A DNA stretch of 64,000 nucleotides from Halobacteriovoraceae bacterium (GCA_963719505.1 CAVRCF010000003.1:356969-420968), one strand, 5' to 3'. Shown: positions 3,381 through 62,087, counted from the first letter of the stretch. The notes: generated by a model not told the origin, from the sequence alone. Numbers and translations: made by a program.

Positions 3381-4460
3381 CTATTTTGTCGCTACGTTTC
3401 TTCCAGTTGAGAAAAGCTTTCCATGAACGTGACTTGCGATATCTAGTGCTCTGGATGCATCGAGCTTTCCACCACCGAGAACTTTACCTTTTAGAGTCTT
3501 AGCTTTTAGTGATGAGCTGATAATAATATTTCTTACTTGTTGGTAATTAAACTCAGGAAATTGAGATTTAACTAAAGCGACAACACCAGTAACAAAGGCC
3601 GTTGCTTGAGAAGTTCCTGTCATGAACCCTGCACCATTATTAGGAATTGCTGACTTAATTCTAAAACCTGGAGCTGCGATATCAACTGATTTTGATCCCC
3701 AGTTTGAAGCAGAGATTAAATTATTTGATTCGTCGTGAGCTCCAACCGTGATGATATTTGAGAGTCCATAACTTGCAGGGTAGTAGGCATTCTTTTTTCT
3801 ATCAATATTTGATCTTTCATTTCCAGCTGCTGCGATAACAAGGATTCCCTTTCTCTCAGCTTTCTTTAAGACTGCAAGCTCTGCTACGCTGGCCTCTGGA
3901 CCTCCGCCTGAGTAGTTGATGATATCAACATTTTGATCAACAGCGTACTCAAGGGCCTTGATTGTTGAATCTAGGTTTGCTTGGCCTGATGCTTTTGGAT
4001 TATAGTATTTTAAAGCGAGAATTCTAACATCTGGAAAAATACTTTTTACAATTCCTGAGACGTGAGTTCCATGCCCGTGTGAGTCGTCTGGTGTCGTCGT
4101 TGGAGACTTTGTTGAAAAATCCATACCGTAGTTCTTTTTATCCAACTTTCCTTTAACTGCTACAAGATTGTCTTTTAGAAAGGGATGGTTGAATTGGATT
4201 CCGGTATCCACAACTGCAACAGTAATATCTTTTTTCTTATGAAATCTTTTCCACGAAGCTGATAAGTTAATTGATGACTTTGAGTTATTCGGATCGATTC
4301 CCCAGCTGGTAAATCGGCTTGTTAGGTTTGTCGGAGCATAAAAAGAGCTCGACTCCTTCTTAACAACAAGATTAGTTGTTTTTAATGACTTTGATTGAAC
4401 TGATGAAGTAGCGACAAGAGTTGCTGCTAGTAATGTGATTTTCAAGTTCATTTTCAACAT
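3381..4460 (-). CDS. Secreted subtilisin-family (S8) serine protease
   Basis: Signal peptide; triad motifs VVDTG, HGTHV, GTSQA; AAAGN oxyanion motif. Confidence 0.93.
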   Translation of the reverse strand: MLKMNLKITLLAATLVATSSVQSKSLKTTNLVVKKESSSFYAPTNLTSRFTSWGIDPNNSKSSINLSASWKRFHKKKDITVAVVDTGIQFNHPFLKDNLVAVKGKLDKKNYGMDFSTKSPTTTPDDSHGHGTHVSGIVKSIFPDVRILALKYYNPKASGQANLDSTIKALEYAVDQNVDIINYSGGGPEASVAELAVLKKAERKGILVIAAAGNERSNIDRKKNAYYPASYGLSNIITVGAHDESNNLISASNWGSKSVDIAAPGFRIKSAIPNNGAGFMTGTSQATAFVTGVVALVKSQFPEFNYQQVRNIIISSSLKAKTLKGKVLGGGKLDASRALDIASHVHGKLFSTGRNVATK

Positions 4461-4501
4461 AATTTAACCTTCGGCTTTAAGTATAGTCTCACACATATAG
4501 A

Positions 4502-4517
4502 AGCAAGTTACTTGCCA
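4502..4517 (-). promoter_or_regulatory. Putative sigma-54 (-24/-12) promoter of the subtilase
   Basis: Minus strand TGGCAAGTAACTTGCT: GG-N10-GC with TTGC, about 40 nt upstream of the start codon. Confidence 0.7.
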
Positions 4518-4602
4518 ATACTTAAAGTGTGATTCCTTATACTTATAGAACTTATCTGTGTCTAATGTTTAAACATGTACCTAAAAAATTGATAATTTGA
4601 TC

Positions 4603-4630
4603 AAAAAAAACCCTCAAGAGACTTGAGGGC
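4603..4630 (-). terminator. Intrinsic terminator downstream of dksA
   Basis: Minus strand CCCTCAAG-tct-CTTGAGGG followed by T8. Confidence 0.85.
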
Positions 4631-4685
4631 TAAACTACTAGAATATTTAATCTTTTGGAGTGTTTTAACGTTAACTGGACTAAAT

Positions 4686-5054
4686 TTAGGCTCTTCTGCT
4701 GAATTGGTGAGAAGCTTCGCGCTCTCTTTCTTCGGCAACTTCTAGGCAAAATTCCGCCCATGGCTGAGTCTTTAGTCTTTTTTCAGAAATTTCTTCTCCA
4801 GAATCTAGGCAGATTCCATAAGATCCATCTTCTATTCTTTCAAGTGCAGCATCTATTCTTCTGAGCTTGACCATTTCTTTTTCACGTATGCTAAATGAAA
4901 CTTGTTGATTTACTGTGTTGTTGGCAAGATCGGCTTCATCGGCAACTGGCTCTATCTTTAGGTCTTCAAGATTGCTGAGAATTCCACTGTTAAGTATCTG
5001 ATTTCTCGATTCAAGCAGTCTTGTTTTAAAAAACTCTGTTTTCTTTTTGTCCAT
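4686..5054 (-). CDS. dksA: DksA/TraR family transcription factor, two-cysteine type
   Basis: DEAD acidic tip, ALERIEDGSYGIC..GEEI..KRL..P; start moved to ATG 5054 after a GGAGGAG RBS. Confidence 0.88.
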   Translation of the reverse strand: MDKKKTEFFKTRLLESRNQILNSGILSNLEDLKIEPVADEADLANNTVNQQVSFSIREKEMVKLRRIDAALERIEDGSYGICLDSGEEISEKRLKTQPWAEFCLEVAEEREREASHQFSRRA

Positions 5055-55470: not shown

Positions 55471-56511
55471 ATGAGTTTAAAACTGCGTTTAGTTGCTCTA
55501 TCAATAATTGTGATCGCTTTTGGTGCGTCTTGCACTAAAGGAAATACAAAACCAAGTTATAAGTACAAAGCCGCATCGGGTGATGGTGTCGCTGTGAAAG
55601 TTGGAGATATTACTATCTCTCAAGAAGAGCTCATGAAAGGTCTTGAGACTGACCTTTATGATATCGAGCAAAAAGAATTCGATTTGAAATTTAACAAAGC
55701 TAATTCACTTGTTATTGAGAAGTTGATGGATAAAGATCCAAAGAAAAAGGGCCTATCAAATGACGAATATATGGAAAAGTATATTGTCTCAAAAATTGAA
55801 ATCACAGCAAACGATATTAACAATTTTGTAAAAGAAAAAAATATTCCTGCTGCTCAGGTTAACCCTCAGATCAAAGAGAGAATTAAGCAATATCTCATGG
55901 TAGAGAAGAAGAAAGATGCACTTGATGACTGGTTAGCTGAAAAAACAAAAAGCACACCGATCGAGATCTTTTTTAAGAAGCCAAGAAGACCTAGCTTTGA
56001 TGTAAAAGTAGGGGATGCTCCAACAATCGGTGGAAAAGATGCGAAAGTTGAAGTGGTTGAATTCTCAGACTTTCAGTGTCCATTTTGTTCAAAGGCTTCA
56101 ATTATTCTTAAGCAGTTGAAACAAAAATATGGCAAGAAAATTAAAATCGCCTTTAAACAATATCCTCTTCCCTTTCATGCTCAAGCAAAAGGAGCTGCTA
56201 TTGCTTCTCTTTGTGCAAATGACCAAAAAACAGAGTACTTTTGGAAAATGCACGATGCTATGTTTGAAAACCAGGCAAAGCTTGCAGTTGCTGACTTAAA
56301 AGAGACGGCTAAAAGAATCGGTTTGGATTCGGCAAAGTTTGATAAGTGCCTTGATTCTCAGCAGTTCTTAGCGGCAGTTGAAGCTGATATTAAGCAAGGT
56401 CAAGAAATAGGTGTTAAATCCACACCAACTTTCTTCGTCAATGGCCAACTTGTTCAGGGAGCTCAACCGATTGAAGTTTTCTCTGAAATTATTGATGCAG
56501 AATTAGAATAA
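55471..56511 (+). CDS. DsbA-family thioredoxin lipoprotein with SurA-N-like region
   Basis: Lipobox GASC; EFSDFQCPFC; GVKSTPTFFVNG. Confidence 0.9.
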   Translation: MSLKLRLVALSIIVIAFGASCTKGNTKPSYKYKAASGDGVAVKVGDITISQEELMKGLETDLYDIEQKEFDLKFNKANSLVIEKLMDKDPKKKGLSNDEYMEKYIVSKIEITANDINNFVKEKNIPAAQVNPQIKERIKQYLMVEKKKDALDDWLAEKTKSTPIEIFFKKPRRPSFDVKVGDAPTIGGKDAKVEVVEFSDFQCPFCSKASIILKQLKQKYGKKIKIAFKQYPLPFHAQAKGAAIASLCANDQKTEYFWKMHDAMFENQAKLAVADLKETAKRIGLDSAKFDKCLDSQQFLAAVEADIKQGQEIGVKSTPTFFVNGQLVQGAQPIEVFSEIIDAELE

Positions 56512-56531
56512 ACCAATAAAATAAGTCAATT

Positions 56532-56560
56532 ATCGGGGTAAGCGAAGAATTTACCCCGAT
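56532..56560. terminator. Hairpin downstream of the DsbA-like gene
   Basis: ATCGGGGTAA..TTACCCCGAT; poor U-tract. Confidence 0.5.
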
Positions 56561-56628
56561 TCAAAACAGTCCCTCTCTAATGCTATACTATTCATAACGG
56601 CCAGGATGGCCCTCATTTAATCATATAG

Positions 56629-58614
56629 GTGTTACCAATGAATGGTATTGATTATTCTAGAAAACTAGATCTTGAACGACAAAACTATCGTCAAAAAGCG
56701 GATGAAACTCGGCGGGCGGCAGAATCCTATACTAAAGATGTTAAAGAAAACTATGAAAATAAAGTTGAAGATATAAGAGAAAATAGTCTTAAGCACAAAG
56801 CAAACCTTGAAGAAAAATTTAAAGATTCCTACGACAATATGGATAGGTCCACAAGAGACGCACTTCTTGATAAGCAGCTAACTTTTAACAAAAAATTAGA
56901 TACAGAACGCAAAGAGTTTACGGGGATAAGAAAAGAAAATCTTGAAGATTTTAATCGTCGTTTTAAAGTTTTAAATGACTCTTATCAGTCTTCAATTGAT
57001 GAATTAAAAGAGACTTCTAAAGAAAGAGGGGATTACCAAAGCGAAAACTATGAGGCGAAGGTCTCAAAGTTACAGGCCGAGAAAGACCAAGCTCTCAAAG
57101 AGTTCCAATATCGATCTTCGGTTTCAAATGATGAAGTTGCTTCTGACTATAGAAAAGAGAAGAGTGAGATCATAGACGCAAAAGATAAAGAGATGCGTGA
57201 ACTGGTTAAACAGGAACAAGATAAGAGAAATTTCTTAAAAAATACCGCCGTGAAAAGTGTAGAGGATTTAAAGAATGATCAAGAAGCTTCACTCAAGAGA
57301 TTAAGTGATGTGACAGATGCTAGGATAAGAGATGTTCAAAACAACTCTTCTGCAAAAATAAATGAGTTAAATGACAAGAGCACACAAAAGCTTAGTGACT
57401 TAAATAATAAAGCTCAAAGTGAATCGTTAGCACAAAACAAAGAATTCAATGAGGCTTTCGAAAAACAGTCTTTTGAAAATAGACAAGCGATTAGAGATCT
57501 CAACTCTCACCAAAGAGCTCGTGGATTGGGTAAAGATTCTCCAGCCAACGTGAGTATAAATGAAAAGAAGCTTGAGTTGGAAAGGTTATCCAACGAATCA
57601 AGAATAGATACTCTCAAAGACCAAAAAGAAAATGTCGAAAAAATTTACGCTGAAAGAGAAGAGCGGGCAATCGATCGTTTTCAAGATGGATATCGAGAAA
57701 TGAGAATTGACCTGTCTGATAAGCTTCAAGAACAAGAAAGAGAAATGTCAGAGGTAAATAGGGTTGAGAGATACAAAGATTTAAAATTGATGTCTGAAAA
57801 GGATGACTCTCATTACAAAGTTCTCAATGAAGAAAGAGAGAACTCTTCAAGAGAAATAAATAAAGTTAAAAGAGAAGCGAGAGAAAACTTTCAAAGGGTA
57901 ACAAAAACTTACTCAGGTGATCTTAGAAATGTTCAAACGATAGCTGATGCTCAAGTTGATGAAATGAAAAAGAATACAACAGAGGAGAAAAAGAGTCTTC
58001 AAAATTCTCTGCAAGCAAATACTCAAGAAAGTCTCGCTAATGAGCGTAAAATTCAAAATGAAAAGTATTCAAAAATGGAACAGTCTTTTCAAAAGAAATT
58101 TTTGAATCTCCAAAATAAAAATACAGAAACCAAGACGGCTTATGAAAATAAGATGCGAAATCTTATCACTGCAACAAATGATAAAATTAGACAAACCAAA
58201 GAAGACCTCCAAGAATCAGCGAACAATCAGTTGAAAATGGAAAGAGAGAATAACGAATCAAAGCTGAAACAACTTCGCGATTCTATGGCACTTCTTAGGG
58301 CCACTTCGGATAAGAAATTAACGGAGCAAAGACTAGAAAATACTCAAAAAATTAGCGAACTAACCTACGGCTACGAGAATAAACTTAAGAACCAAGAAGA
58401 GAAGTTTAAAGATATTATTGATCAAAACCAAAGAAAAGCTGAAATTGATAACGATAGGCTAAGGCTTGCTACAGCTCAAGAGAAGGAAACTTTGATGGAG
58501 CAATATGAGCAAAAGCTAGAGCGTATGGAAGCCATGAATAATCAGAAGCTTACCAATATGGAAAAGTACGCTGGTCTACAAATTTCACAGAAACGTGGAT
58601 CAATTCAAGCATAA
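56629..58614 (+). CDS. Long coiled-coil protein
   Basis: About 660 aa rich in E/K/Q/N/R, almost no Pro, no TM or signal peptide; start may be ATG 56638. Confidence 0.75.
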   Translation: MLPMNGIDYSRKLDLERQNYRQKADETRRAAESYTKDVKENYENKVEDIRENSLKHKANLEEKFKDSYDNMDRSTRDALLDKQLTFNKKLDTERKEFTGIRKENLEDFNRRFKVLNDSYQSSIDELKETSKERGDYQSENYEAKVSKLQAEKDQALKEFQYRSSVSNDEVASDYRKEKSEIIDAKDKEMRELVKQEQDKRNFLKNTAVKSVEDLKNDQEASLKRLSDVTDARIRDVQNNSSAKINELNDKSTQKLSDLNNKAQSESLAQNKEFNEAFEKQSFENRQAIRDLNSHQRARGLGKDSPANVSINEKKLELERLSNESRIDTLKDQKENVEKIYAEREERAIDRFQDGYREMRIDLSDKLQEQEREMSEVNRVERYKDLKLMSEKDDSHYKVLNEERENSSREINKVKREARENFQRVTKTYSGDLRNVQTIADAQVDEMKKNTTEEKKSLQNSLQANTQESLANERKIQNEKYSKMEQSFQKKFLNLQNKNTETKTAYENKMRNLITATNDKIRQTKEDLQESANNQLKMERENNESKLKQLRDSMALLRATSDKKLTEQRLENTQKISELTYGYENKLKNQEEKFKDIIDQNQRKAEIDNDRLRLATAQEKETLMEQYEQKLERMEAMNNQKLTNMEKYAGLQISQKRGSIQA

Positions 58615-58679: not shown

Positions 58680-60368
58680 ATGTCACGTCGCGCAAAAATA
58701 GTTGCAACCATCGGTCCCAGTTCAAATTCGATTGAAATGATTGAAAAGCTTATTAAAGCTGGAATGAATGTCTGCCGACTAAATATGAGCCACGGAACTC
58801 ATGATTCTCACGCACAAGTTATTTCCAATATTCGTCAAGCAAGCCTAAATCTCAATCAAGAGGTGGCCATTCTGTGTGATCTCCAAGGTCCAAAAATTCG
58901 TGTTGATAAACTTCCACAAAATCTTATGCTTGAAGCCGGTACTGAATGGGTTATCGGTGCAAGTGATGTGATGGACAAGTATCCAGAATATAAAGATAAC
59001 TTTATCCCAACAGTTTATAAAGATCTTGTGACTGACGCTCATGCAGGTGCGGTTATTCTTTTTGATGATGGTTTGATGGAAGCAAAGGCATTTGAAAAAG
59101 ATCGTGATGTTTTAAAAATAAAAATTGTGATCGGTGGAGAGTTAAAATCTAACAAAGGAATTAACCTTCCCAATGTAAATATCTCAGCGCCAAGTTTCAC
59201 TGAAAAAGATAGAGAAGACCTTCTTTTTGGTTTAAAACACGACGTTGATTATGTTGCTTTAAGTTTTGTCAGAACAAAAAAATGTATTCAGGAAGTTAAG
59301 TACCTTCTCCACAAACTTAGAAAAAATACACCTATTATTTCTAAGGTTGAAAAGCCAGAAGCGGTTGAGAATATTGATGAAATTATTGAGGTCTCTGACT
59401 GCATCATGATTGCAAGAGGTGACATGGGAGTTGAGGTTGGTAATCATCTGGTTCCGGCTATTCAAAAAGATATTATTAGAAAGTGTAATGAAGTGGGAAC
59501 TCCTGTTATAACGGCAACTCAGATGCTTGAGAGTATGACGAATAACCCAAGACCTACTCGAGCAGAGGCCAATGATGTGGCCAATGCTATTTGGGATGGG
59601 ACTGATGCTGTTATGCTCAGTGGAGAAACAGCTGGGGGGCAATACCCAGTAGAGTCAGTAACAATGATGAGTAATATTATTATTGAAGCTGAGAAAAAGC
59701 CTACAGAACGTCCTCTTCTTCGTCATATGGATATTGAAAGTGTGGCTTCCAGTGTGCAAATTGCCGCTTCAATTATTGGTGAAAAAAATAACGCCAAATG
59801 GGTTGTCGCCGTCACTCAGTCTGGTTACTCATGTTTAAAAATGAGTCGTTTCAGATCGAAGATGGAAGTTCTTGGCGTCACAAACTCACTTCAAGTCATG
59901 AGAAAAATGTGTCTTTACTGGGGAATTACTCCTTATTATTTCCTTGAAAGCGAAGAAGACCTCTCAACATTACAAGAGCAGATGATTGAGCAGTTAAAGA
60001 CTCATCAGATGGTTCACAATGGAGATAAAATTGTTATTACTCACGGTGATGGAAAGTTCTTTAAACAAGGAACTTCGAATTCTATTCGCGTTGAAATCAT
60101 TAAAGATGCCCATATCGAAGATAAAAATTCAAAAAAGAAAGATGCCATTTTACAAGAGAATATTAAAAATGGTCGCATCATCTTGGATACGGCCCAATGT
60201 GCATCTTGCCAGTCTTGTATCAATATCTGTCCTCATGACATTTGGATCAGAGATAAAAATAATGACACCATTATTAATGCGGCTACCGCAAATGATTGTG
60301 CTCGGGATATGGAATGTGTTTCAGCATGTCCAACCGGGGCTATTGAGATCATCTCAACAGATATCTAG
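58680..60368 (+). CDS. pyk: Pyruvate kinase with C-terminal ferredoxin domain
   Basis: KIVATIGP, RLNMSHG, DLQGPKIR, MIARGDMGVE, ATQMLESM, DGTDAVMLSGET; tail CASCQSCINICP..CARDMECVSACP. Confidence 0.95.
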   Translation: MSRRAKIVATIGPSSNSIEMIEKLIKAGMNVCRLNMSHGTHDSHAQVISNIRQASLNLNQEVAILCDLQGPKIRVDKLPQNLMLEAGTEWVIGASDVMDKYPEYKDNFIPTVYKDLVTDAHAGAVILFDDGLMEAKAFEKDRDVLKIKIVIGGELKSNKGINLPNVNISAPSFTEKDREDLLFGLKHDVDYVALSFVRTKKCIQEVKYLLHKLRKNTPIISKVEKPEAVENIDEIIEVSDCIMIARGDMGVEVGNHLVPAIQKDIIRKCNEVGTPVITATQMLESMTNNPRPTRAEANDVANAIWDGTDAVMLSGETAGGQYPVESVTMMSNIIIEAEKKPTERPLLRHMDIESVASSVQIAASIIGEKNNAKWVVAVTQSGYSCLKMSRFRSKMEVLGVTNSLQVMRKMCLYWGITPYYFLESEEDLSTLQEQMIEQLKTHQMVHNGDKIVITHGDGKFFKQGTSNSIRVEIIKDAHIEDKNSKKKDAILQENIKNGRIILDTAQCASCQSCINICPHDIWIRDKNNDTIINAATANDCARDMECVSACPTGAIEIISTDI

Positions 60369-61292
60369 ATGCGTGATCTTCTCTCCTTATCCGTAGAGAC
60401 TTTGCAGTCAATGCAAATTGTTGACTGGAGTTATACTGAAGAGGATAAGCCCAAAACATTTGATGACTACTCAAGTTGGGTCGATCGAAAGCTTCATGGA
60501 GAACTTGGTTATCTCGCTGATCACCGAAAAGATCTAAGACAGAGCATCTCATCTTTCTATCCCCCTTTTAAATCATCACTGGTTTTTCTTTTTGACTACA
60601 CTCCAGCTGCTAAAAAAAATAAAGAAGATGATAACCACTCGTTTGCGGCCTATACTTTGGGCTTTGATGGAATGGATTATCACTACTGGATTAAAGACAA
60701 GCTAGAAAGCTTGGCAAAGCTATTAGGTTTAAAAGAGTACTCTTTTAGTATTGATGCTCAACCAGTTTTAGAAAGAGACTTGGCCTACCGCTCGGGTCTT
60801 GGGTGGTTTGGGAAAAACTCAATGCTCATCAATAAAAATCACGGAAGTTTCTTTCTAATAAGTGCGATCTTTTTAGATCAGAAACTAGATCTCACGACAA
60901 GAACTCTTGATGTCGATCACTGTGGTACTTGTACTCGTTGCATTGATGCCTGTCCCACTGATGCCATTATTGAAGGCAGAATGATTGACGCCAATAAATG
61001 CATAAGTACTTTTACGATCGAGCACTTTAAAGATGATATTGATCCCCCCAAAGGGTATCCAACGGACAGAGGGGAGATCTTTGGTTGTGATATATGCCAG
61101 GACGTTTGCCCCTGGAATTCAAAACCTTTAGTGAACTCGACCGTTGGTGAAGAGGCCGAGTTTGTCAAAGTATTCAAAGAAACAAATTTACACGATATTT
61201 CTAATAGAGAGTTCAAAAGAATCTTTAAAGGCACTTCCTTAGAGAGAACAGGACGAGTAGGTCTTTTAAAGAATATTAAATATTTAAAATAA
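60369..61292 (+). CDS. queG: Epoxyqueuosine reductase
   Basis: DYHY, VLERDLAYRSGLGWFGKNSMLI, CGTCTRCIDACPT, FGCDICQDVCPWN. Confidence 0.92.
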   Translation: MRDLLSLSVETLQSMQIVDWSYTEEDKPKTFDDYSSWVDRKLHGELGYLADHRKDLRQSISSFYPPFKSSLVFLFDYTPAAKKNKEDDNHSFAAYTLGFDGMDYHYWIKDKLESLAKLLGLKEYSFSIDAQPVLERDLAYRSGLGWFGKNSMLINKNHGSFFLISAIFLDQKLDLTTRTLDVDHCGTCTRCIDACPTDAIIEGRMIDANKCISTFTIEHFKDDIDPPKGYPTDRGEIFGCDICQDVCPWNSKPLVNSTVGEEAEFVKVFKETNLHDISNREFKRIFKGTSLERTGRVGLLKNIKYLK

Positions 61293-62087
61293 TTACCAAG
61301 AAAATTCTTTTCTCATAAAGGCATTGATGTGACTTGCACCACTGCTTGGCTCGTGGTGAGAAAGCTTCTTTGGCTCATTCAAAGAGACTTCATTTCCTAG
61401 ACTTTTTAAATTAAACGACAAGGCTTCAGCTCCACCAGATCCCACCACCACATCATCCAAGCCTGTTATAAGGTGAATTCTTTTATTTGAAAGATCTAGC
61501 TTGAGCTTTTCTTCTTTTATCCAAGGAAAAATATTCTCAGGACTAAGAGCTGGGCTCACAAGCTGTCGTCTAAGATCTAAAGTCTTTTGATAAAAAGCGG
61601 ATTCAAAAAGATGAGTTTCCTTATGTTGGCTAATGCCAAGACCGACGCAAATCGCAGTCGTTTTAGCGGACTCAAATTCAGGTAGAGTAAGCGCCCTTAG
61701 AGCGAGTAAAGCCCCAAGGCTGTGTCCTCCAACAATGAGATCCGTCATTTCAATTTCAATTTTATTGTCCTTAAGACTTTTATTTAAAAACTTATAGGCT
61801 TCAAAGAAGCATAAATGCGCCTGAGCTTTAAAGTCATCAAATGATTCAGCTTCTTTAAAACTTCCAAGATAATGTCCGGGAAGATCAAAGATAACCGCGG
61901 GGGCTCCTGCATCAGCAAAACGCTGGGCCCAAGTGAGGCAGTCGTTTTTACTGGCCGTGTATCCATGGGTAAAGACTCCAAACTGACCTTTATAATTGTC
62001 GGGAAGTTTTGCATCTGGAAGGACTACAATCGCATCAAATGAGAAGAATTCGTTTTTTAATGTCGCTTTTTCAATTTTTATGGCCAT
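61293..62087 (-). CDS. Alpha/beta hydrolase
   Basis: THGY, FDLPGH, GHSLG nucleophile elbow, DDVV, late His. Confidence 0.82.
   Translation of the reverse strand: MAIKIEKATLKNEFFSFDAIVVLPDAKLPDNYKGQFGVFTHGYTASKNDCLTWAQRFADAGAPAVIFDLPGHYLGSFKEAESFDDFKAQAHLCFFEAYKFLNKSLKDNKIEIEMTDLIVGGHSLGALLALRALTLPEFESAKTTAICVGLGISQHKETHLFESAFYQKTLDLRRQLVSPALSPENIFPWIKEEKLKLDLSNKRIHLITGLDDVVVGSGGAEALSFNLKSLGNEVSLNEPKKLSHHEPSSGASHINAFMRKEFSW

Follow-up and report, generated by a model that had tools for sequence, protein, structure and literature searches.

Why would a bacterium attach a ferredoxin-like domain to its pyruvate kinase (PK)? This question is raised by pyk-fdx, a gene located at 58680..60368 on the plus strand (as are all features given below) of a stretch of 64,000 nucleotides from a Halobacteriovoraceae bacterium, here called the window. 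The gene consists of a single ORF of 562 amino acids without internal stop, encoding a PK with a C-terminal ferredoxin-like domain. It ends with ATC TAG (stop at 60366-60368), and the ATG of queG, encoding epoxyqueuosine reductase, directly follows at 60369. The original prediction had described a PK, a charged linker, about 60 residues carrying the motifs CxxCxxCxxxCP and CxxDxxCxxxCP, and a queG start codon abutting the pyk stop. This arrangement is confirmed by the reading frame, the profile matches and the homologues. Two readings had been offered for it, a sensing or regulatory PK and a tethered electron donor for QueG. As described below, the first gains support and the second loses it.

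The kinase part is a complete PK. In an NCBIfam profile search, the PK profile TIGR01064 matches residues 3-474 with 536.4 bits (cut-off 306.4). The A/B (barrel) domain covers residues 3-327 (58686..59660; PF00224, 396.9 bits) and the alpha/beta, allosteric C domain residues 362-471 (59763..60092; PF02887, 86.1 bits). The predicted model of the protein has a mean pLDDT of 86.7, and its residues 1-475 adopt the PK fold, as illustrated by the alignment of 370-468 residues to many solved PKs (VIA-align Z about 50, rmsd 2.0-3.6 Å). Invariant positions in 51 fused homologues include, among others, R33, N35, S37, K222, E224, G247, D248 and T280, which we take to be the catalytic columns, as in the PKs of E. 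coli and rabbit. A single PK match is present in the window's genome (G000), i.e., pyk-fdx itself. Because this is the only PK in the genome and its putative catalytic columns are invariant, any effect of the tail, whatever its role, would fall on the housekeeping enzyme.

The kinase is connected to the tail by a charged and variable linker of 21 amino acids (residues 477-497; 60108..60170), the first part of which, residues 477-487, has a pLDDT below 50 in the predicted model. The ferredoxin-like dicluster domain itself comprises 65 amino acids (residues 498-562; 60171..60365) with seven Cys and Asp543, and is recognized in Pfam by Fer4 (26.3 bits, cut-off 21.1) and, marginally, by Fer4_9 (residues 506-555; 28.0 bits, cut-off 27). 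Motif 1, CASCQSCINICP (residues 507-518; 60198..60233), is a complete CxxCxxCxxxCP with C507, C510, C513 and C517. Motif 2, CARDMECVSACP (residues 540-551; 60297..60332), reads CxxDxxCxxxCP and forms a three-Cys site with C540, C546 and C550 beside D543 (codon GAT, 60306-60308). The tail thus has not two complete CxxCxxCxxxCP motifs with eight Cys, but one complete motif and one with three Cys and Asp. Modelled alone, it reaches a pLDDT of 85. Foldseek ranks highest the delta domain or subunit of oxalate oxidoreductase and that of the Methanosarcina acetivorans PFOR (TMq 0.68-0.73), and also lists clostridial and 7Fe ferredoxins. With dicluster ferredoxins and oxidoreductase delta domains (5EXD/5C4I; PorD, 9BT4) the tail shares the same beta-alpha-beta-beta-alpha-beta fold, at an rmsd of 2.0-2.4 Å over 63-66 columns and with a sequence identity of only 24-25%. 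It resembles bacterial dicluster ferredoxins in having two CP-ending motifs at the usual spacing, but differs from them in motif 2, with three Cys and Asp instead of four Cys, and in its fusion to a non-redox kinase.

The three-Cys site with or without Asp that is seen in 7Fe and Asp-ligated ferredoxins is present at the sequence level. Such ferredoxins, namely those of Sulfolobus (1XER) and Thermus (1H98), the Pyrococcus furiosus ferredoxin 2Z8Q and FdII of Desulfovibrio gigas (1FXD), are among the sequence and fold matches of the tail. Their three-Cys site accommodates either a [3Fe-4S] cluster or a convertible [4Fe-4S] cluster with Asp as ligand. In these ferredoxins, however, it is usually motif 1 of a free carrier that is altered, while here it is motif 2 of a fused domain. 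Both motifs are kept in all 120 homologues listed, the Asp of motif 2 being D in 119 and E in one. Over 28 tails from three families, D503, C507, C510, C513, C517, P518 and I521 are invariant, as are C540, D543, C546, C550, P551, A554 and E556 (tail columns renumbered to the full protein as tail position + 494). Three positions ahead of C540, the 120 homologues listed have A, V, S, I or M, but in no case Cys. In seven tails from two other families of the phylum, f21 and f24, the corresponding position is a Cys, giving the pattern Cx2Cx5Cx3CP and eight Cys in total, a spacing that also occurs in other Fer4 proteins ('CDLCGGDPEC'). In view of this extra upstream Cys, the Asp perhaps does not replace the second Cys of motif 2: Asp543 may be a conserved loop residue, the missing ligand being the first Cys of Cx2Cx5Cx3CP. 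The three-Cys-plus-Asp site of the original prediction stands and is conserved, but its Asp may not be the Cys substitute that it was taken for. Motifs and fold together indicate that the tail most likely binds two Fe-S clusters. One would be a four-Cys [4Fe-4S] cluster; the other, at the three-Cys site beside Asp543, is predicted to be either a [3Fe-4S] cluster or a labile [4Fe-4S] cluster with a non-Cys ligand.

The fusion recurs across genomes, and together with the retention of both motifs this goes beyond chance. The sample consisted of 401 genomes of the phylum Bdellovibrionota, 101 of them from the window's family, and a contiguous fusion is present in 79 of these 101, as well as in five of seven f21 and both f24 genomes. 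An in-frame fusion is found in 158 database proteins, for which the public entries just read 'pyruvate kinase', and further divergent fused PKs, for which hardly any relatives turned up, are P0200 and the P0174 group. In the ESM Atlas, the nearest cluster comprises 63 members with PK and PK_C, 79% of which also have Fer4. Among 51 homologues, in which the linker is 21-28 amino acids long, the mean pairwise identity of the tail (0.62) is close to that of the PK C domain (0.65) and well above that of the linker (0.28), with a range of 0.62-0.73 over the domains. Compared to a congener, dN is 0.127 in the tail, 0.086 in the PK and 0.426 in the linker. As judged from these sequences, the fusion is genuine and of long standing, and its tail is under purifying selection, with a level of conservation like that of the PK C domain. 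A PK without the tail occurs in at least 11 of the 101 family genomes sampled; by this pattern the tail has been lost repeatedly and is thus dispensable in some settings.

With regard to the origin of the fusion, single or multiple, the deep nodes of the PK trees lack resolution, and the f21 and f24 tails are no nearer by score to the tails of the window's family than some free ferredoxins are. A related-locus search with the seven f21 and f24 tails yielded 14 loci, eight of which are PK fusions; the other six (L056-L061, from Phycisphaerales, Synergistaceae, Methanobacteriota, Proteobacteria, Desulfobulbaceae and Pirellulales) have no PK match. A search with the tail only, among 1.84 billion representatives, gave short top matches (P0123-P0137) that start within linker-like sequence or without Met. 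They were rejected as free-standing homologues and are interpreted as pieces of fused genes or as products of frameshifts in them. A separate protein of 90 amino acids, P0173, is perhaps a true free-standing version of the f21-type tail.

An indication of what the tail acts on comes from the kinase itself. In the predicted model, His211 (codon 59310..59312) closes barrel helix 200-212, just ahead of strand 219-223 with K222 and E224. It is present in 24/24 fused PKs of both clades, in all 51 fused homologues of alignment A1 and in 7/7 distant fused PKs, but in only two of 22 tail-less PKs, and no other core position tracks the presence of the tail in this way. In a PK tree, built with a quick method and with SH-aLRT support only, the tail-less PKs of the family are scattered inside the fused clade: fused L006 is the sister of L065 and L066 (SH-aLRT 98), as fused L008 is of L062 (SH-aLRT 90). 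In nine of the ten tail-less lineages nested among fused ones, His211 is replaced by Q, N or K. By this alignment-based measure, His211, a residue of the catalytic barrel, co-evolves with the tail. Its putative role is suggested by co-variation over few independent events, i.e., two to four fused lineages and about two well-supported to seven possible losses. Since the tail co-evolves with His211, it probably regulates PK rather than serving the product of the neighbouring queG.

The reading that we favor is that the tail is an Fe-S regulatory module acting on PK itself, to which we assign a probability of roughly one in two. The protein would be a housekeeping PK with a replacement extra C-terminal domain, consisting of a small ferredoxin fold on a tether of 21-28 residues instead of a PEP-utilising domain. 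The ferredoxin domain may dock near His211 on the A domain of its own or a neighbouring subunit. His211 itself is found where the helix leading into the strand with the putative catalytic residues Lys222 and Glu224 ends. PK activity or the stability of the tetramer would then depend on the state of the clusters, i.e., on whether they are present or lost, oxidised or reduced, and of the 4Fe or 3Fe type, by which the flux from PEP to pyruvate would be tied to oxygen, oxidative stress or the supply of iron and Fe-S clusters.

Both a regulatory add-on at this position of PK and a regulatory use of Fe-S clusters have precedents. [quoted passage not shown] They have the same layout, i.e., a complete A/B/C enzyme with an extra domain after the last strand of the C domain. 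In ECTD PKs, however, this is a PEP-utilising phospho-histidine domain and not a Cys-rich ferredoxin fold, and PKs with PEPut or ECTD domains occur in Bacillota or Cyanobacteria, whereas pyk-fdx belongs to Bdellovibrionota. NF004978, the profile for PKs with a PEPut-type extra domain, scores 538.7 bits, but only its positions 7-490 of 590 are aligned. No PEP-utiliser is found among the 15 Pfam families listed and a PEPut domain of about 100 residues is lacking, so that the add-on is indeed not of the PEP-swivel type, as had been predicted. Fe-S clusters serve as regulatory or stability switches in non-redox enzymes, e.g., glutamine PRPP amidotransferase of B. subtilis and aconitase/IRP1. These enzymes share the proposed logic, in that the integrity of the cluster reports oxygen or iron and sets activity or lifetime; in pyk-fdx, by contrast, the cluster would reside in a separate tethered domain and not in the catalytic fold. 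We know of no case of an Fe-S switch in PK or any glycolytic kinase. For B. subtilis PK, the ECTD is reported to be autoinhibitory and required for regulation by effectors (bioRxiv 10.1101/2024.08.15.607825; see also PMC9009071). This precedent for a regulatory C-terminal add-on counts in favor of the regulatory reading, as do the misfits between the distribution of the fusion and that of the proposed partners, which are discussed below.

Other observations go against regulation. The long, variable, low-confidence linker would fit a mobile electron carrier no less well, losses of the tail have occurred repeatedly (at least the 11 family genomes mentioned above), and the position of queG directly downstream in most loci of the family is possibly not coincidental. 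A more far-reaching version of the regulatory reading is possible but tentative. It holds that pyk-fdx encodes the first glycolytic kinase gated by an Fe-S cluster, in which the cluster of the three-Cys-plus-Asp site, being labile, senses oxygen, oxidants or iron and its signal is relayed via His211, possibly through a His211-Asp543 pair, to the Lys/Glu strand, thereby switching the PEP-pyruvate node between free-swimming and intracellular growth; a slippery run of A9-A11 in the linker of some relatives might even give both tailed and tail-less enzyme.

Of the alternatives, a purely structural role fares best, even though we consider it rather unlikely. The tail would then be an Fe-S, metal or disulfide domain that braces the tetramer or the A/C interface without any sensing, like subunit D of archaeal RNA polymerase. 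The fold matches indeed include non-redox ferredoxin-like domains, i.e., subunit D of the RNA polymerase of Sulfolobus (2pa8_D, 7ok0_D) and ABCE1 (6tmf_d), and the coupling with His211 would suit a docking contact whether regulatory or not. However, a three-Cys-plus-Asp site typifies clusters that are convertible or labile, as in the ferredoxins of Pyrococcus furiosus and Desulfovibrio africanus, and its near-complete conservation among the homologues listed (119/120) would be an odd choice for a pure brace. Moreover, the tail was lost repeatedly while PK was kept, which argues that folding and assembly do not need it.

It is improbable that the tail is a general electron carrier, in other words a working ferredoxin anchored to an abundant tetramer, used for example by a 2-oxoacid:ferredoxin oxidoreductase that oxidises the pyruvate made by PK. 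This idea draws on the best fold matches, the oxalate and pyruvate oxidoreductase delta domains described above, on the long and flexible linker, and on the presence in the window's genome of a two-subunit 2-oxoacid:acceptor oxidoreductase without a ferredoxin subunit of its own. The same genome nevertheless also has a free 2[4Fe-4S] ferredoxin of 62 amino acids. The two-subunit oxidoreductase (TIGR03710) is found in just 34 of 100 family genomes, in one of seven f21 genomes and in neither of the two from f24, and conversely in 27/27 and 24/34 genomes of families without the fusion. In addition, POR_N has no match above the cut-off in five tailed genomes with a completeness of 99-100%, no partner gene is consistently adjacent to pyk, and the His211 pattern is left unexplained. 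The fusion is distributed independently of 2-oxoacid oxidoreductases, and a 2-oxoacid:ferredoxin oxidoreductase as partner of the tail was rejected on this genome distribution.

The original prediction saw in the tail a possible tethered electron donor for QueG. Made just ahead of QueG from one mRNA, the tail would deliver low-potential electrons to the clusters and cobalamin of QueG. To our knowledge, no physiological electron donor of QueG has been established. The queG product (307 amino acids; 60369..61292) matches TIGR00276 marginally (202.8 bits, cut-off 200; residues 23-304 on model positions 16-299 of 337) and contains PF08331 (DUF1730, 31.6 bits) and PF13484 (Fer4_16, 69.4 bits). QueG has two clusters of low potential, reported as -575 and -510 mV (PMC5175355), that need some reductant. 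The abutting stop and start codons of the window fit such a donor, and of 24 family loci, 20 have queG directly downstream of pyk and in the same orientation, overlapping, abutting or at a spacing of at most 68 bases; queG directly follows pyk in 9/9 further tail-less loci as well. Co-expression of pyk with the gene for this Fe-S-cobalamin reductase is real in the window's family and might not be coincidental. Nonetheless, this adjacency is independent of the tail: queG is directly downstream in 19 of 22 tailed family loci, but likewise directly downstream of 10 of the 11 tail-less family PKs. Conversely, three tailed genomes gave no queG match, namely G007 (94% complete), G020 (98%) and G010 (93%), and in tailed G024 it lies 1.8 kb away on the opposite strand. 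In f21 and f24, 9/9 genomes have queG, yet it is adjacent to the fusion in 0/7 loci, and in the six of these genomes for which the queG match was listed it lies on another contig. Furthermore, queG is present in 351 of the 401 phylum genomes, most of which lack a fused PK, and a QueG donor would not explain the His211 pattern either. The adjacency of pyk and queG, which had been singled out for attention, is thus kept in the window's family but absent from f21 and f24; it is synteny of the window's family, the link to queG is weak, and a role as QueG donor is very doubtful. The upstream neighbour of pyk is conserved as well. It is a Lys/Glu-rich, coiled-coil-like ORF of 661 amino acids (56629..58614) with no Pfam match, and ORFs of the same composition are found just upstream of pyk in loci of f1, f21, f24 and f10 (646-682 amino acids) and, in a shorter form of 555 amino acids, of f13.

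Finally, an assembly or sequencing indel that joined pyk to a separate ferredoxin gene, a possibility raised from the start, is already refuted and has practically no chance of being right: pyk and ferredoxin lie in different frames in only three of the 101 family genomes (G022, G215 and G393), where the frame shifts in each case by one base within a linker stretch of A9-A11 and the ferredoxin, in its own frame, lacks a start codon, against the many in-frame fusions in family genomes and database proteins and a longest A run of six in the window's linker.

No PK-ferredoxin or PK Fe-S fusion was found in the literature searched, which lay outside subscription journals and supplements. The Fe-S add-on on PK is apparently undescribed there, and its coupling with His211 is new here. 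The tempting link between glycolysis and queuosine modification of tRNA is left poorly supported. His211, Asp543 and deletion of the tail provide ready experimental handles on the regulatory reading. Few allosteric enzymes have been studied as much as pyruvate kinase, which is known to be controlled by metabolites, phosphorylation and, in Bacillota, by the PEPut domain. With a conserved Fe-S domain on its only PK, a whole family of predatory bacteria, together with at least two sister families, would have a redox or iron input at the step that ends glycolysis.

The pyk-fdx gene is a single uninterrupted frame of 562 amino acids on the forward strand (58680..60368). NCBIfam assigns its product to the pyruvate kinases (PKs; TIGR01064, 536.4 bits vs. 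a cut-off of 306.4), and Pfam recognizes the PK barrel at residues 3-327 (396.9 bits), the PK C domain at residues 362-471 (86.1 bits) and a C-terminal dicluster ferredoxin domain, with Fer4_9 at residues 506-555 (28.0 bits, cut-off 27) and Fer4 in the same region (26.3 bits, cut-off 21.1). The tail, which follows a linker (residues 477-497), reads ...GRIILDTAQ-CASCQSCINICP-HDIW...-CARDMECVSACP-TGAIEIISTDI. The model of the Bacillus-type long PKs, NF004978 (NCBIfam), covers the protein over model positions 7-490 of 590 only. The usual PEP-utilizer add-on is thus absent, in agreement with the claim that the tail differs from a PEP-swivel domain. The TAG stop codon (60366-60368) abuts the ATG (60369) of a 307-aa ORF; together with the frame, the domain matches and the motifs, this shows the layout in the original prediction to be right throughout. 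The model of the full-length protein (pLDDT 86.7) is confident outside residues 477-487.

Upstream of pyk, the order DsbA-like thioredoxin, Lys/Glu-rich coiled-coil-like protein (no family match), pyk is seen both at 55471-58614 of the window and in a locus of another family, f21 (L029:164-3115). A coiled-coil-like ORF of 646-682 aa also precedes pyk in loci of the window's family (f1) and of families f24 and f10 (noted in L024, L025, L016 and L017), and one of 555 aa precedes an unfused pyk in an f13 locus; pairwise similarity between these ORFs is weak (E 0.02). Elsewhere in the window's own genome (G000), on contig C5, prfC, encoding peptide chain release factor 3, is present as two overlapping ORFs (L039:3133-3837 and 3815-4744; model positions 7-238 and 238-526); either the gene is frameshifted or the assembly is in error at this point.

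Searching with the C-terminal 123 residues returned 158 proteins; of the 120 listed, almost all are 556-568 aa long, and the few that name a source assign it to Halobacteriovoraceae or Bacteriovoracaceae bacteria and label the protein 'pyruvate kinase'. In a sample of 401 Bdellovibrionota genomes, f1 accounts for 101, the window's own included. The fusion is contiguous in 79 of these, again counting the window's genome, and interrupted by a frameshift in three; nine have a PK without tail, and 10 have no match to the query, among them G015, which carries a tail-less PK. The fusion is also found in five of the seven f21 genomes and in both f24 genomes, whose loci are labeled uncultured Bacteriovoracaceae, Bacteriovoracia, Oligoflexia or Bdellovibrionota. 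No match spanning the PK end and the tail was obtained in the remaining 291 genomes of the sample. Further divergent fused PKs are P0200 and the P0174 group, found in database searches. The closest ESM Atlas cluster comprises 63 proteins with PK and PK_C, 79% of which also have Fer4; its label, based on the few members with a record, is mostly Candidatus Walliibacteriota.

Motif 1 is complete in all 120 listed homologs, and motif 2 is CxxDxxCxxxCP in 119, the other having Glu for Asp. Across 28 tails from three families, 14 columns are invariant: D503, C507, C510, C513, C517, P518, I521, C540, D543, C546, C550, P551, A554 and E556 (tail-alignment position plus 494). Mean pairwise identity among 51 homologs is 0.73 for the PK barrel, 0.65 for the PK C domain, 0.62 for the ferredoxin domain and 0.28 for the linker, which measures 21-28 residues. 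Relative to a congener, dN is lowest for the PK (0.086), higher for the ferredoxin domain (0.127) and highest for the linker (0.426); dS is approximately 1.7 for the PK, with saturation in the short regions. Modeled alone, the tail adopts a bacterial ferredoxin fold (pLDDT 85). By fold it comes closest to the delta (ferredoxin) domain or subunit of two enzymes, oxalate oxidoreductase and Methanosarcina PFOR (TMq 0.68-0.73); the matches listed also include APS reductase B, subunit D of archaeal RNA polymerase and 7Fe ferredoxins.

The f21 and f24 tails have eight Cys in total, with an extra one three residues ahead of the first motif 2 Cys. Their motif 2 therefore reads Cx2Cx2Dx2Cx3CP, i.e., Cx2Cx5Cx3CP, and unrelated Fer4 proteins share this spacing, Asp included ('CDLCGGDPEC...CP'). 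Judging from these patterns, the motif 2 Asp may be a long-standing loop residue and not a stand-in for the second Cys. In f1, the upstream position holds A, V, S, I or M, with Cys in 0/120 homologs, which makes this a three-Cys site under either reading of the Asp. P0173, a 90-aa protein with a Met start, a Lys/Glu-rich lead and a domain resembling the f21/f24-type tail, may be either a true stand-alone version or a piece of a fused gene.

One position of the enzyme body tracks the tail. When cores from 24 fused PKs were compared with those from 22 tail-less ones, His was found at position 211 in all 24 fused enzymes, from both clades, vs. 1/11 tail-less enzymes in f1 and 1/11 in other families; none of the other positions among the 476 scanned behaved similarly. 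His211 is also present in all 51 rows of a larger alignment of fused homologs (A1) and in 7/7 divergent fused PKs, P0200 and the P0174 group among them. In the model, it lies at the end of barrel helix 200-212, before the strand (219-223) bearing K222 and E224. In the PK tree (a quick method, with SH-aLRT support only), tail-less f1 PKs are scattered inside the fused clade, so the tail was lost several times; for example, L065/L066 are sister to the fused L006 (SH-aLRT 98) and L062 to the fused L008 (SH-aLRT 90). Residue 211 is Q, N or K in 9/10 of these nested enzymes. The deep nodes joining the fused clades lack resolution, and few independent events lie behind the pattern. Within that limit, there is good but not conclusive evidence that tail and enzyme body act jointly at or near His211.

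Among solved PKs, those nearest in sequence, 3T05 and 2E28, align over the PK part only and carry the extra C-terminal domain of Bacillota where pyk-fdx has its ferredoxin domain. In Bacillus subtilis, that extra domain is described as autoinhibitory and required for effector control (bioRxiv 10.1101/2024.08.15.607825). Because of this analogy and the coupling to His211, we consider it about evenly probable (0.5) that the ferredoxin domain is a replacement regulatory domain, the state of its putative cluster being relayed to the barrel or tetramer. That the tail is purely a structural brace is unlikely.

More doubtful still is that the tail serves as an electron carrier for some partner other than QueG. 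A pyruvate-oxidizing enzyme appeared attractive, since G000 has a two-subunit 2-oxoacid:acceptor oxidoreductase in an operon without a ferredoxin subunit (G000:C5:451704-455348, L038; alpha subunit TIGR03710, 652 bits); a free 62-aa 8-Cys ferredoxin is encoded elsewhere (G000:C1:287089-287277). This partner was rejected, as TIGR03710 is scarce in the fused families (34/100 f1 genomes, 1/7 in f21, 0/2 in f24), compared to 27/27 and 24/34 genomes in families without the fusion, and POR_N is absent above cut-off from five tailed genomes that are 99-100% complete.

A role as electron donor to QueG, as originally proposed, is slightly less probable again. The 307-aa ORF (60369-61292) is short and barely exceeds the QueG equivalog cut-off (TIGR00276, 202.8 bits vs. 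200; model positions 16-299 of 337), with matches to Fer4_16 and DUF1730 as well; the C-terminal RNA-binding helical domain, described as reaching residue 385 in B. subtilis QueG (PMC5175355), may be partly missing. The adjacency is conserved within f1, where queG lies directly 3′ of pyk on the same strand in 20/24 loci and in 19/22 of those with a tail. However, queG also follows the PK in 9/9 further tail-less f1 loci and in G015, whereas three tailed genomes (G007, G020 and G010, 93-98% complete) have no detectable queG and another, G024, has it 1.8 kb away on the opposite strand. In f21 and f24 it adjoins pyk in 0/7 loci, although it was found in 9/9 genomes, and most of the 351/401 phylum genomes with queG lack a fused PK. 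The adjacency is a gene order at the level of f1; it does not need the tail, nor the tail the adjacency. Downstream, queG (+) converges with an alpha/beta-hydrolase gene (-, 61293-62087), a kept neighbor in most f1 loci; the stop codons abut at 61292/61293, leaving no space for a terminator.

An artifact, i.e., a fusion created by an indel, is hardly credible: instead of the free ferredoxin that relatives might have revealed, the three split genomes each have a one-base frame change within an A9-A11 run of the linker (L013:5160-5190 in G022, L036:1230-1250 in G215 and L037:2630-2650 in G393), and their ferredoxin frame lacks a start codon. The fusion is neither an artifact nor rare. In-frame relatives (L003, L012, L017 and L019) have linker runs of A9-A10, and the longest in the window's linker is A6. 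The A9-A11 run could reflect missequencing of a homopolymer, or it could be prone to slippage and so yield both tailed and tail-less enzyme.

No pyruvate kinase-ferredoxin or Fe-S fusion was found in the openly accessible literature searched; public databases already contain the fused proteins, named simply 'pyruvate kinase'. PKs bearing an additional regulatory domain at the C-terminus are known; in pyk-fdx this add-on would be of the Fe-S type. The clusters of the tail, its docking on the enzyme and any influence on kinetics are all putative. As a replacement regulatory domain, the tail would use its predicted cluster state as signal, be it holo or apo, oxidized or reduced, or with a 4Fe vs. 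a 3Fe cluster in the three-Cys site, and would pass it on to the catalytic barrel or the tetramer.
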